Shown here: piece after piece, positions 24,001-27,000 of the stretch | Numbering within the stretch: position 1 is the first letter of the stretch | How the letters are laid out: each line of letters starts with the position of its first letter | Made by a program: the position numbers | NCBI RefSeq assembly: GCF_045037415.1 | Contig: NZ_CP173438.1 | Strand: one strand, 5' to 3' | DNA length: 64,000 nucleotides | Source: Escherichia coli | GTDB taxonomy: Bacteria > Pseudomonadota > Gammaproteobacteria > Enterobacterales > Enterobacteriaceae

Positions 24001-27000
24001 TCTATTTCCCTAATACCGCCTCTTGCGGCACGGCAACGGCAGTTTCAGTACCATGCATGTTCTCGGATATGCCGCGTGAGCACTACAAAGAAGAGCTGGC
24101 ACAGCACCAGGAAGGCGTGCTGGATATCATTCAGCGAGCGGGCATCAACGTGCTGTGGAATGACAACGATGGCGGCTGTAAAGGCGTTTGCGATCGCGTA
24201 CCTCACCAGAACGTCACCGCGCTGAACCTGCCTGGTCAGTGCATCAACGGCGAATGCTATGATGAAGTGCTGTTCCACGGGCTGGAAGATTACATCAATA
24301 ACCTGCAGGGTGATGGCGTGATTGTCTTACACACCATCGGCAGCCACGGCCCGACCTATTACAACCGCTATCCGCCGCAGTTCAGGAAATTTACCCCAAC
24401 CTGCGACACTAACGAGATCCAGACCTGTACCCAAGAGCAACTGGTGAACACTTACGACAACACGCTGGTTTACGTCGACTATATTGTTGATAAAGCGATT
24501 AATCTGCTGAAAGAACATCAGGATAAATTTACCACCAGCCTGGTTTATCTTTCTGACCACGGTGAATCGTTAGGTGAAAATGGCATCTATCTGCACGGTC
24601 TGCCTTATGCCATCGCCCCGGATAGCCAAAAACAGGTGCCGATGCTGCTGTGGCTATCGGAGGATTATCAAAAACGGTATCAGGTTGACCAGAACTGCCT
24701 GCAAAAACAGGCGCAAACGCAACACTATTCACAAGACAATTTATTCTCAACCTTATTGGGCCTGACTGGCGTTGAGACGAAGTATTACCAGGCTGCGGAT
24801 GATATTCTGCAAACTTGCAGGAGAGTGAGTGAATGAAAATTCTGATTGTTGAAGACGATACGCTGTTATTGCAGGGATTGATTCTGGCGGCGCAAACCGA
24901 AGGCTACGCGTGCGATGGCGTGAGCACCGCGCGGATGGCGGAACAAAGCCTTGAAGCCGGTCATTACAGCCTGGTGGTACTGGATTTAGGCTTACCCGAT
25001 GAAGATGGGCTGCATTTTCTTGCCCGTATCCGGCAGAAAAAATACACTCTGCCGGTGTTAATTCTCACCGCCCGCGATACCCTTACCGACAAAATCGCCG
25101 GGCTGGATGTCGGGGCCGACGATTATCTGGTGAAGCCTTTTGCGCTGGAAGAGTTGCACGCCCGTATCCGCGCCCTGCTACGACGCCATAATAATCAGGG
25201 CGAAAGTGAGCTGATTGTTGGCAACCTGACGCTGAATATGGGTCGCCGTCAGGTCTGGATGGGCGGTGAAGAGTTGATTCTGACGCCCAAAGAATATGCT
25301 CTGCTGTCGCGCCTGATGCTTAAAGCAGGCAGCCCGGTGCATCGGGAAATTCTCTACAACGATATCTACAACTGGGACAACGAGCCCTCGACCAACACCC
25401 TGGAAGTGCATATCCATAACCTGCGCGACAAAGTGGGCAAAGCCCGTATCCGCACCGTGCGCGGATTTGGCTATATGCTGGTCGCAAATGAGGAAAACTA
25501 ATTGAATCTGATGCGTTTTCTGCGCCGACCAATATCGCTGCGCCAACGGCTGATATTGACCATCGGGGCCATTTTGTTGGTGTTTGAGCTGATCAGCGTC
25601 TTCTGGCTATGGCATGAAAGTACCGAGCAGATTCAGCTGTTTGAGCAGGCGCTACGCGACAATCGCAACAACGATCGCCACATCATGCGTGAGATCCGCG
25701 AGGCGGTCGCCAGCCTGATTGTCCCCGGCGTCTTTATGGTTAGCCTGACGCTATTTATCTGCTATCAGGCGGTACGCCGCATCACCCGACCGCTGGCGGA
25801 GCTGCAAAAAGAGCTGGAAGCGCGCACCGCCGACAACTTAACGCCCATTGCCATTCATAGCGCCACCCTCGAAATCGATGCGGTGGTTTCGGCGTTAAAC
25901 GATCTGGTCAGTCGCCTGACCAGCACGCTCGATAATGAAAGGTTGTTTACCGCTGACGTCGCGCACGAACTGCGAACGCCACTGGCGGGGGTGCGTTTGC
26001 ATCTGGAACTGCTGGCGAAAACGCATCACATTGATGTAGCACCGTTAGTGGCACGACTTGATCAGATGATGGAGAGCGTCTCCCAGTTGCTGCAACTGGC
26101 GCGTGCCGGACAGTCATTTTCTTCCGGTAATTATCAACATGTAAAACTGCTGGAAGATGTCATTCTCCCCTCGTATGACGAACTCAGTACCATGCTCGAC
26201 CAGCGCCAGCAAACCCTGCTATTGCCAGAGAGCGCCGCCGACATCACCGTTCAGGGTGATGCAACCCTGCTGCGGATGTTATTGCGAAACCTGGTAGAAA
26301 ACGCCCATCGTTATAGCCCGCAAGGCAGCAACATTATGATTAAGCTGCAAGAAGATGGCGGAGCGGTCATGGCCGTTGAAGATGAAGGACCGGGTATTGA
26401 TGAGAGTAAATGCGGGGAGTTGAGTAAAGCATTTGTACGAATGGACAGCCGTTATGGCGGAATTGGTCTGGGGTTAAGTATTGTCAGCCGCATTACACAG
26501 TTGCATCACGGGCAGTTTTTCCTGCAAAACCGACAAGAGACTTCCGGCACGCGGGCCTGGATACGGCTGAAAAAAGATCAGTACGTGGCAAACCAGATAT
26601 AAAGAAAGCTGCTGACCACCAGCACGCTGAACACGGTAGTTAAACTTTCATAAACACGGTTTTTCATTGCACTCTCCTCCGTTAACCTGGAGGAGAGTAT
26701 GCGCGTCAGAGATTAAGTGAACCTTAAGAGTTCAATTGACCTGATAAGACAGCATCACATCAGGCCATCCGTTTCAGCTTATTCATCAATTCGCGGATGT
26801 TGCTGCACCAGGCGGGTACGTTTCGCCTGCAAATCGGCAATCTCGTGGTCAATATCATCGATTTTCTGCTCGATATTATCGTAATGCTCGACGAGAATTT
26901 CCTTCGCTTCCTGTATATCTGACGCCGCCGGTGTCGCACCTTTCAACGGACGATTTGCCGTCTCTTTCATGGTTACGCCGGTGATTAAACCAACCACCGC

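Follow-up and report, generated by a model that had tools for sequence, protein, structure and literature searches.

We find that the minus-strand reading frame at 26578-26667 of a 64,000-nucleotide stretch of an Escherichia coli genome (hereafter the window) is almost certainly pmrR, a genuine gene of 29 codons, and we encountered no evidence that contradicts this identification. The gene is already known; it is curated, named and experimentally studied, and the frame is a correct rediscovery of a gene that was never hidden from annotation. As the preliminary description had claimed, the frame runs from ATG to TGA on the minus strand, and its translation is MKNRVYESLTTVFSVLVVSSFLYIWFATY (29 codons plus TGA). 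The features of the locus, in order of position, are the following.

23130-23146, plus strand: PmrA box of the eptA-basRS operon promoter, from a motif scan; regulon and module are shared with pmrR
25502-26602, plus strand: basS/pmrB (open reading frame and RefSeq annotation); its last 25 nt, 26578-26602, are shared with pmrR
26478, minus strand: primary 3' end of the pmrR transcript (MG1655 4332305; PMC10687069 Supplementary Data 4)
26571-26736, minus strand: stretch matched by Rfam RF02052 'STnc630' (182 bits, with a gathering threshold of 55; model positions 1-166 of 166)
26578-26667, minus strand: pmrR coding sequence (translation; RefSeq CDS 'pmrR'; NF033224 at 74.2 bits; in-frame pN/pS 0.31)
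26663-26671, minus strand: RNA 3'-end peak (MG1655 4332112-4332120, dominant position 4332117; PMC10687069 Supplementary Data 2)
26671-26680, minus strand: Shine-Dalgarno region GGAGGAGAGT, with GGAGG at 26676-26680, 8 nt ahead of the ATG; doubles as the 3' arm of the leader hairpin
26688-26690, minus strand: predicted PmrA-dependent transcription start, placed 7-8 nt after the -10-like hexamer
26689-26698, minus strand: 5' arm of the leader hairpin, ACTCTCCTCC (anti-Shine-Dalgarno), covering the last three bases of the -10-like hexamer
26696-26701, minus strand: -10-like hexamer CATACT, 10 nt downstream of the PmrA box; putative -10 element
26712-26728, minus strand: PmrA (BasR) box CTTAAG-GTTCA-CTTAAT (CTTAAGGTTCACTTAAT), an exact match to YTTAAK-N5-YTTAAK
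26779-28281, minus strand: proP (RefSeq), co-oriented with and upstream of pmrR; its transcripts enter the pmrR leader

The name PmrR, which had been suggested from the sequence, is borne out by each of the resources consulted. In RefSeq the frame is labelled 'LpxT activity modulator PmrR', and 5412 of 5426 complete E. coli genomes have pmrR annotated. The NCBIfam equivalog model for PmrR, NF033224, matches at 74.2 bits (cutoff 30), with residues 1-29 aligned to model positions 1-29 of 29, and the peptide is 100% identical to UniProt PMRR_ECOLI, which is MG1655 b4703. The small size of the frame was also correctly described, in that it is listed only when the ORF cut-off is lowered to 20 aa. 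The peptide has the size and the single hydrophobic helix expected of the family (∼29 aa): K2 and R4 lie in the N-terminus and residues 9-27 (LTTVFSVLVVSSFLYIWFA) are hydrophobic and uncharged, as proposed for a single-helix membrane peptide, and PmrR-6xHis has been found in the membrane fraction (PMC11429745). The position is likewise that of the family, directly downstream of basS/pmrB on the opposite strand, and the proposed 25-nt antisense overlap with the 3' end of basS agrees with the MG1655 annotation.

The pmrR peptide is conserved in related genomes, and its reading frame is more than a chance occurrence. Among 80 basS loci from other species (81 loci with the window; Salmonella is absent from the 80), 55 carry a homologous ORF of 28-33 aa in the corresponding antisense position. 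A profile derived from the orthologues matches at 25 bits or more in 56 of the 81 loci, in every case antisense to basS, while its best score elsewhere among the 11,520 small ORFs of these loci is at most 7.5 bits. Purifying selection acts in frame: pN/pS, computed only on the part of the ORF that lies outside basS, is 0.31 in the pmrR frame, compared to 0.96 and 2.29 for the two alternative frames, and the codon-position entropies are 30, 19 and 41 for positions 1, 2 and 3, respectively. The gene upstream of the locus is proP in Escherichia, but uvrB in Klebsiella and many other genera. Orthologues of the Klebsiella, Enterobacter, Raoultella and Kosakonia type (Klebsiella-type peptide MQKINFREYLAVATALVIIVAFFHQWVLTF) are labelled hypothetical and score under the curated PmrR threshold; they are relevant to colistin-resistance genomics in those pathogens.

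The region upstream of the ATG (26668-26778), in which a PmrA box was to be sought, contains an exact box at 26712-26728, 44 nt upstream of the ATG, together with the -10-like hexamer and GGAGG; promoter and ribosome-binding signals are thus present. The motif YTTAAK-N5-YTTAAK occurs only twice in the 64 kb, at pmrR and at the eptA promoter, compared to 0.17 occurrences expected by chance, and a box with at most one mismatch lies 40-46 nt 5' of the start codon in all 56 pmrR loci. A PmrA-dependent promoter is therefore indicated by a present and conserved motif, and the requirement for it in E. coli has been published (PMC8129183). The -10-like hexamer follows the pattern N-A-N-A-C-T 10 nt after the box, with variants that include GATAAT; across 53 sequences at fixed spacing, its positions 2 and 6 never vary, and conservation is at least 90% at positions 4-5. 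The predicted transcription start would sit at the top of the hairpin 5' arm, where the loop begins, ∼21-23 nt before the ATG. Our literature searches found no mapped experimental start site for pmrR and nothing that names the 'PmrA box' together with pmrR. A sigma-70 consensus scan of 26300-27000 found no promoter, as is expected for an activator-dependent promoter that lacks a -35 element, and this result is not counted against pmrR.

Earlier experiments in E. coli document translation of the frame, a membrane location for its product and phenotypes that depend on LpxT. Both PMC8129183 and PMC8004244 cite Kato et al. 2012 for the description of PmrR. Ribosome-profiling evidence, which had been named as a check on the gene, exists in the form of Ribo-RET start-site reads that rise 5-fold in low Mg2+ (PMC11429745), and a plasmid in which the pmrR ATG is changed to TAA does not complement a deletion (PMC11429745); these results and the in-frame purifying selection all point to a translated product. 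That PmrR inhibits LpxT rests on published genetics (PMC8129183): in a PmrA-constitutive strain, deletion of the PmrA box in the pmrR promoter causes polymyxin sensitivity and deoxycholate resistance, and deletion of lpxT restores polymyxin resistance to the promoter mutant (PMC8129183). LpxT may not be the sole target of PmrR in E. coli, because a preprint reports low-Mg2+ growth defects from pmrR deletion or overexpression that are independent of lpxT (PMC11429745). In the same work, low Mg2+ caused no significant induction of reporters built with the upstream region of either pmrR or proP, despite an increase in RNA-seq (PMC11429745). A search for a link between ProQ and pmrR in the literature yielded nothing beyond two incidental mentions.

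Together, these elements suggest the following circuit. BasS/BasR (PmrB/PmrA) is activated by Fe3+, by mild acid, or by low Mg2+ via PmrD, and phospho-BasR would then bind the direct-repeat box at 26712-26728. This box would fill the -35 region 10 nt upstream of CATACT, a spacing like that of PhoB-type class II promoters, and transcription would begin ∼21-23 nt before the ATG, a distance estimated from the hexamer. The strong GGAGG would drive translation of a single-pass inner-membrane peptide with a cytoplasmic N-terminus. By inhibiting the lipid A kinase LpxT, which makes lipid A 1-diphosphate, PmrR would leave position 1 open for phosphoethanolamine addition by EptA, with the outcome that surface charge and deoxycholate resistance fall and polymyxin resistance rises; in Salmonella, the action of PmrR would also feed back on PmrB.

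The leader of pmrR contains a hairpin that pairs the Shine-Dalgarno region with the -10/start region immediately upstream. In the window it is a 10-bp perfect inverted repeat with an 8-nt loop, which folds at -19.9 kcal/mol (z = -4.4), and 53 distinct sequences preserve it with covariation. Pairing in the core helix amounts to 83%, compared to 37-58% in slid controls, a conservative count since it was scored on an explicit 13-pair structure in which rows out of register are taken as broken. Covariation is 0.276 compared to 0.155 ± 0.011 in shuffles (0 of 500 as high), although relatedness among sequences can inflate such statistics. RNAalifold on a MAFFT alignment kept only 5 pairs, and differences in loop length shift some rows of that alignment. 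A comparison of G-U with A-C pairs, which bears on the strand that folds, gave a mixed result, as the core (39 G-U, 14 A-C) favours the pmrR strand and the outer pairs favour the opposite one.

The ends of RNAs in the region bear on what this hairpin does. MG1655 3'-end coordinates were transferred to the window by an indel-free alignment. One published 3' end falls directly after the leader hairpin, 5 nt past the stem (PMC10687069), and the published text states that transcription of the upstream gene terminates within the pmrR coding sequence. The primary 3' end of the pmrR transcript itself lies 100 nt beyond the stop codon, ∼125 nt antisense into basS. No U-tract follows the hairpin stem in the window, and the hairpin is thus not a canonical intrinsic terminator; in 48 of 56 loci, no canonical terminator separates the upstream gene from the PmrA box. 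A terminator-like site within the coding sequence (26624-26610) was rejected, as its z-score is -0.09 and 88 of 200 shuffles fold equally well. The predicted unpaired fraction of the Shine-Dalgarno sequence is 0.49 in the short leader compared to 0.14 in read-through RNA, and the short leader is predicted to be the more open of the two in 55 of 56 loci.

The leader hairpin probably both ends and silences read-through RNA from proP. We infer that it would form only in RNAs begun upstream, such as proP read-through, where it would mark the 3' end and hide the Shine-Dalgarno sequence, leaving only the PmrA-initiated mRNA to be translated. We tentatively propose, with somewhat less than even confidence, that the hairpin is an insulator embedded in the promoter: the PmrA-initiated mRNA would lack the 5' arm and have a free Shine-Dalgarno sequence, while read-through RNA from upstream would fold, end at the base of the hairpin and go untranslated. 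Such an arrangement would keep a peptide that is harmful if mis-expressed under PmrA control only, and the same architecture would mark an unannotated PmrR family of the Klebsiella/Enterobacter type that curated models miss.

Alternatively, the hairpin might serve as a translational attenuator or thermosensor within the PmrA-initiated mRNA, and not act on read-through RNA alone. A strong hairpin that sequesters the Shine-Dalgarno sequence is what such a regulator would need, and the reporter with the pmrR-proximal region had negligible activity (PMC11429745). However, the start of transcription would have to lie at 26698 or further upstream, a mere 13 nt past the PmrA box, where a -10 element downstream of the activator site would not fit, and the invariant N-A-N-A-C-T pattern lies within the 5' arm of the hairpin. 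We consider this alternative unlikely.

The overlap with basS raises the idea that the locus serves mainly for antisense control of basS through overlapping transcripts of convergent genes (an 'excludon'), the peptide being of secondary importance. Indeed, pmrR-basS is among the convergent excludons listed by ExcludonFinder (PMC12288877), the primary 3' end of the pmrR transcript lies well within basS (PMC10687069), and the length of the region downstream of pmrB alters the pmrB mRNA level in plasmid constructs (PMC8004244). Resistance does not follow the pmrB mRNA level, however, because the construct with the ORF only had the highest mRNA and conferred no resistance (PMC8004244). Moreover, the end of the pmrR-type ORF relative to basS ranges across genera from an 8-nt gap to a 57-nt overlap while peptide, box and hairpin stay conserved, and because the overlap varies in this way it looks incidental. 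The part of BasS that is overlapped is a non-conserved tail, QYVANQI, past the HATPase_c domain, which ends at residue 359 of 366. Finally, both partners belong to the PmrA regulon, so that mutually exclusive expression would be unexpected. The probability that antisense control is the main role of the locus is therefore small, and we retain pmrR as a peptide-coding gene.

It is still less probable that the functional product is a non-coding RNA, either Rfam STnc630 or an sRNA derived from the proP 3' UTR, with the ORF incidental. The Rfam entry, typed 'STnc630, Gene; sRNA', does match over its whole model at 182 bits, and RNA 3' ends map both inside and beyond the pmrR ORF. The match, however, spans the PmrA box, the hairpin and the entire pmrR ORF; the model begins upstream of the box and so takes in promoter DNA, and the Rfam consensus itself carries an intact 29-aa peptide of the PmrR type. 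The in-frame pN/pS (∼1 or more in the other frames), the induced start-site footprints (PMC11429745) and the failure of the ATG-to-TAA plasmid to complement (PMC11429745) all argue for the peptide, and our literature search found no mention of STnc630. The most fitting interpretation of STnc630 is the pmrR mRNA or the proP 3' UTR, not an sRNA gene in its own right. That pmrR is a chance frame in the basS-proP spacer, as might be supposed from its mere 29 codons in a region where chance ORFs of 20-40 aa are plentiful, is refuted by conservation, selection, regulatory motifs and published experiments, and we give it practically no weight.

The gene ties the PmrAB regulon to lipid A charge, to polymyxin and colistin resistance and to bile-salt sensitivity, all of which has been published, and its rediscovery brings no new knowledge of E. 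coli. Across the Enterobacteriaceae, pmrCAB is accompanied by a conserved unit made up of the peptide, the PmrA box and the Shine-Dalgarno-sequestering hairpin, and this unit suggests a simple way of shielding small regulatory genes from neighbouring transcription. The Rfam 'sRNA' STnc630, as pmrR mRNA, is a point for database clean-up.

Compared to the PmrR known from Salmonella and E. coli, the window shows no difference at the gene level. The peptide is identical to that of K-12 and matches 24 of 29 residues of a Salmonella-type peptide (MKNRIYESLTTVFSVLIVSSFLYVWVTTY), the latter derived from the Rfam consensus and not from a genome; size, antisense placement at the pmrB 3' end and PmrA-box promoter are all alike, and additional LpxT-independent effects have been suggested in E. 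coli (PMC11429745). The consensus structure of RF02052, an enterobacterial candidate sRNA, holds the same Shine-Dalgarno hairpin as the window, but whereas the family is typed as non-coding, its match here comprises a complete ORF under purifying selection together with promoter DNA. PmrR also resembles MgrB (acting on PhoQ), MgtS (MgtA), SafA and MzrA, small membrane proteins that modulate two-component circuits (PMC11429745, PMC3533512), in being a single-helix protein of <50 aa that is transcribed under the regulator whose pathway it modulates. PmrR differs from these proteins in that it acts on an enzyme, LpxT, and would feed back on the sensor only indirectly, via surface charge. There is no sequence relationship between PmrR and these proteins, and among the small ORFs of the basS loci the PmrR profile matched nothing else.

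The closest parallel to the leader hairpin is in IS10/Tn10, in which Davis, Simons and Kleckner reportedly described 'fold-back inhibition' of transposase translation in 1985. In IS10/Tn10, the ribosome-binding site base-pairs, through an inverted repeat, with sequence that lies upstream of the native start, and the fold arises only in transcripts that enter from outside, which are translationally silent. The pmrR hairpin differs in that its native start is predicted from the -10-like hexamer and in that RNA from the upstream gene also has its 3' end at the hairpin. In both systems an inverted repeat sequesters the Shine-Dalgarno sequence, and we use IS10/Tn10 as a working analogy that implies no homology.

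The 29-codon minus-strand reading frame that the preliminary description named pmrR, and placed across the 3' end of basS, is correctly identified and its interpretation is supported. The frame is invisible to the default ORF listing with its 60-aa cut-off, as had been stated, and was recovered at a cut-off of 20 aa; the 25-nt overlap with basS is likewise as described. The features of the locus are these, with minus-strand features ordered 5' to 3':

25502-26602, plus strand: basS ORF, with 26578-26602 common to pmrR
26779, minus strand: proP stop
26737-26767, minus strand: imperfect 9-bp stem GGCCTGAT...ATCAGGTCA, directly 3' of the proP stop codon, without a U-tract
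26728-26712, minus strand: PmrA box CTTAAG-GTTCA-CTTAAT, a perfect match
26701-26696, minus strand: -10-like CATACT, 10 nt past the PmrA box
26698-26689 and 26680-26671, minus strand: inverted repeat ACTCTCCTCC / GGAGGAGAGT, 10 bp and perfect, with an 8-nt loop
26578-26667, minus strand: pmrR ORF, ATG to TGA, product MKNRVYESLTTVFSVLVVSSFLYIWFATY

Annotation, a gene name and experimental work on pmrR already exist for E. coli. A 501-nt query spanning the ORF has matches in 5412 of 5426 complete E. coli genomes, and the annotation under the match is ‘pmrR: LpxT activity modulator PmrR’ in 12 of 12 sampled records; strain SK1144 (100% identical) carries an annotated CDS with identical ends and an identical overlap with pmrB (basS). 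The MG1655 counterpart, b4703 (4332116-4332205, ‘small regulatory membrane protein PmrR’), also overlaps basS (4332181-4333272) by 25 nt, and a 601-nt alignment of K-12 with the window contains no indels and 11 mismatches, all of them outside ORF, box, -10 and hairpin. The assignment to PmrR rests on the RefSeq annotation, on a full-length match to the NCBIfam equivalog NF033224 (74.2 bits, cutoff 30) and on exact identity to UniProt PMRR_ECOLI; no Pfam family was above threshold for the peptide. Beyond the known gene, the analysis yields two modest, testable by-products: a conserved promoter-region hairpin and an unannotated orthologue family.

Published experiments link this gene to lipid A modification and to growth. 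In PmrA-constitutive E. coli, a deletion confined to the PmrA box of the pmrR promoter results in polymyxin B sensitivity and regained deoxycholate resistance; polymyxin resistance of the promoter mutant is brought back by deletion of lpxT, and ectopic pmrR complements (PMC8129183). Ribosome profiling, proposed earlier as a check, is available: Ribo-RET footprints at the PmrR start site rise 5-fold in low Mg2+, and the presence of PmrR-6xHis in the membrane fraction agrees with the suggestion of a membrane peptide (PMC11429745). Deletion of pmrR impairs growth in low Mg2+, a defect that the wild-type ORF rescues and an ATG-to-TAA version does not, and overexpression without stress is harmful, with both growth effects independent of lpxT (PMC11429745). 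The pmrR-basS pair also appears as convergent and overlapping in the ExcludonFinder list (PMC12288877).

We examined conservation in 80 basS-homologue loci, one genome per species, using a profile built from clear orthologues. An ORF of 28-33 aa scoring at least 25 bits is present in 56 of 81 sequences (55 loci and the window), with a length of 29-30 aa in 54 of these. All 56 ORFs are antisense to basS, ending between 8 nt beyond its stop and 57 nt inside it, and among 11,520 small ORFs across all loci no profile match outside the pmrR position exceeded 7.5 bits. The ORF occurs in Escherichia, Citrobacter, Klebsiella, Raoultella, Enterobacter, Kosakonia, Kluyvera, Phytobacter, Pseudocitrobacter, Trabulsiella, Yokenella and others; the profile scan found none in Pectobacterium, Rahnella, Rouxiella, Ewingella, Chimaeribacter and Edaphovirga, or in a few Enterobacteriaceae such as Superficieibacter and Pseudescherichia. 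In loci that lack pmrR (e.g. L009, L018, L035, L048, L081), the pmrB stop and the upstream-type neighbour are only some 20-90 nt apart.

The ORF codes for protein and is under purifying selection. For the portion outside basS, compared in 27 phylogenetically independent nearest-neighbour pairs, the in-frame pS is 0.39 and pN 0.12 (pN/pS = 0.31), while the shifted frames give pN/pS of 0.96 and 2.29; column entropies at codon positions 1, 2 and 3 are 30.2, 19.2 and 40.7. The preliminary description held that the gene would be in doubt if the peptide were not conserved in related genomes or if no promoter or ribosome binding signal lay upstream. Given this conservation and selection, and with a PmrA box (a perfect copy, where a search had been suggested), CATACT and a Shine-Dalgarno sequence (SD) all upstream of the ATG, both doubts fall away.

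The overlap with basS looks incidental. Its length is 25 nt throughout Escherichia, 4 in Citrobacter, 22 in Klebsiella, 42 in some Kosakonia and 57 in Pseudocitrobacter, and Kluyvera and Phytobacter show either no overlap or a small gap (at most 8 nt in the sample). The HATPase_c domain of E. coli BasS ends at residue 359 of 366, and tblastn alignments of BasS to other genera end at residues 354-358; the overlapped codons, QYVANQI (BasS 360-366), therefore form an unconserved tail. The opposite strand encodes the most conserved part of PmrR, its W-x-x-T/S-Y/F C-terminus. The most economical interpretation has pmrR under constraint and the stop codon of basS drifting into it.

The curated PmrR model covers peptides of the Escherichia/Citrobacter type; the 30-aa peptides of Klebsiella, Raoultella, Kosakonia, Kluyvera and Phytobacter give no match or 17-22 bits (cutoff 30). 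The orthologues below cutoff, Enterobacter included, are in loci L010, L014, L019 and L021-L062 (e.g. L022 3550-3642(-)), one such peptide being MQKINFREYLAVATALVIIVAFFHQWVLTF, and the public names of Klebsiella-type peptides are ‘hypothetical’ or ‘uncharacterised’. The two types nevertheless align profile to profile (hhalign, 96.7% probability, E = 3.7e-10, 28 columns) and are alike in position, size, PmrA box, spacing and hairpin. PmrR in Klebsiella is not a wholly new idea, since one K. pneumoniae paper has ‘pmrR’ among its compared genes. One record titled ‘Chryseobacterium sp. 18061’ (L045, CACSKA010000002.1) holds an Enterobacteriaceae pmrB-pmrR locus; because its PmrR is one residue off that of ‘Citrobacter sp. 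18056’ (L040) from the same project, a wrong label or contamination is the probable cause.

The inverted repeat places the pmrR SD in its 3' arm, followed directly by GCA and the ATG. The folding free energy of the stem-loop RNA is -19.9 kcal/mol (z = -4.4), which none of 200 shuffles equalled. A stem-loop with the SD as 3' arm is found in 56 of 56 loci, at 26671-26698(-) in the window and some 4-30 nt ahead of the respective pmrR starts in loci L002-L072. Covariation was evaluated in 53 distinct sequences with an explicit 13-pair structure: its 11-pair core helix is paired in 83% of cells, versus 37-58% when whole-structure partners are slid by 1-3 columns. Cells changed on both sides number 62, versus 24 +/- 4 in shuffles, and the covariation score is 0.276 versus 0.155 +/- 0.011 (0/500 shuffles in either case). 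Compensatory types occur at six pairs (at one, for example, CG 18, AU 17, GC 6 and GU 6). It is possible that the hairpin acts on the basS-sense RNA, for which the G-U versus A-C strand test leaves room with its mixed outcome.

In our view, RNA reading through from the upstream gene probably stops at the hairpin and is kept untranslated by it. In most loci this gene has the same orientation as pmrR. Escherichia and Citrobacter amalonaticus have proP as this neighbour. In Klebsiella a co-oriented gene of ~675 aa was read as uvrB; most other genera have a similar ~675-715-aa co-oriented neighbour, the uvrB identity having been read in Klebsiella only. The neighbour lies at 3820-5844(-) in L022 and at equivalent positions in most non-Escherichia loci. 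The pmrR gene, box and hairpin stay with pmrB in both contexts, as a pmrCAB-pmrR module. Between the upstream gene and the PmrA box, no canonical terminator was found in 48 of 56 loci, and in the window proP apparently lacks a canonical intrinsic terminator ahead of the pmrR promoter. According to a study of transcript termini, transcription of the upstream gene terminates within the pmrR CDS by SEnd-seq (PMC10687069). Its Supplementary Data 2 has a 3' terminus peak at 4332112-4332120 (dominant 4332117) in MG1655. In the window this peak is 26671-26663 (dominant 26666), its first position being the last base of the stem; because the terminus abuts the stem, the hairpin appears to mark the stable 3' end of proP-derived RNA while burying the pmrR SD. 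No U-tract follows the stem, so the hairpin may be a processing or exonuclease stop, not an intrinsic terminator. The primary 3' end of the pmrR transcript itself, 4332305 (PMC10687069, Supplementary Data 4), corresponds to 26478, about 125 nt antisense into basS.

The same segment matches the Rfam family RF02052, ‘STnc630’, over the whole model (26571-26736(-), 182 bits, gathering score 55). The family type is sRNA gene, and the match takes in the PmrA box together with the complete pmrR ORF; the first 25 model positions include the box, the consensus structure includes the SD hairpin and the consensus encodes MKNRIYESLTTVFSVLIVSSFLYVWVTTY. Since the match spans box, hairpin and a peptide-encoding consensus, the family appears to represent pmrR mRNA or the 3' UTR of the upstream gene (proP), rather than a non-coding RNA. 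A literature search found no mention of STnc630.

The pmrR promoter may also explain why pmrB(BL21) needs downstream sequence for colistin resistance: constructs extending to +34 or +86 give no resistance, +103 gives partial (MIC 4) and +126 or more full resistance (MIC 16), and the ORF-only clone has the highest pmrB mRNA, yet no resistance (PMC8004244). Counted from the basS stop at 26602, the end points are:

+86, 26688: pmrR ORF and SD present, without the -10
+103, 26705: -10 gained
+126, 26728: exactly the far edge of the PmrA box

Because these steps coincide with ORF alone, -10 and full box, they suggest that the requirement tracks the pmrR promoter, and hence pmrR expression, assuming that BL21 is free of indels here. 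This reading is consistent with the promoter deletion results (PMC8129183).

The PmrA box has one other match in the 64-kb window, in the eptA promoter (23130-23146); over the 64 kb, 0.17 matches are expected by chance. At eptA, a third CTTAAG half-site (23122-23127(+)) lies 2 nt upstream of the canonical two-repeat box. A box with at most one mismatch is present in 56 of 56 loci, its end 40-46 nt ahead of the start codon, and the hexamer 10 nt past it reads N-A-N-A-C-T in the alignment of 53 distinct sequences, with A2 and T6 invariant and GATAAT in three loci. From this arrangement, transcription should start at about 26688-26690, 7-8 nt past the -10 and at the top of the 5' arm, a position that is A in most genera. 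With such a start, the PmrA-initiated mRNA would be without the anti-SD arm. In partition-function folding, the mean unpaired SD fraction is 0.49 in such short leaders versus 0.14 in RNAs from 100 nt upstream, and the SD is more open in the short leader in 55 of 56 loci. A consensus sigma-70 scan gave no promoter match for pmrR, in keeping with a promoter that depends on an activator, with the box standing in for a -35 element. At promoters controlled by PhoB, of the OmpR/PhoB family, box and -10 are classically 10 nt apart, as they are at pmrR.
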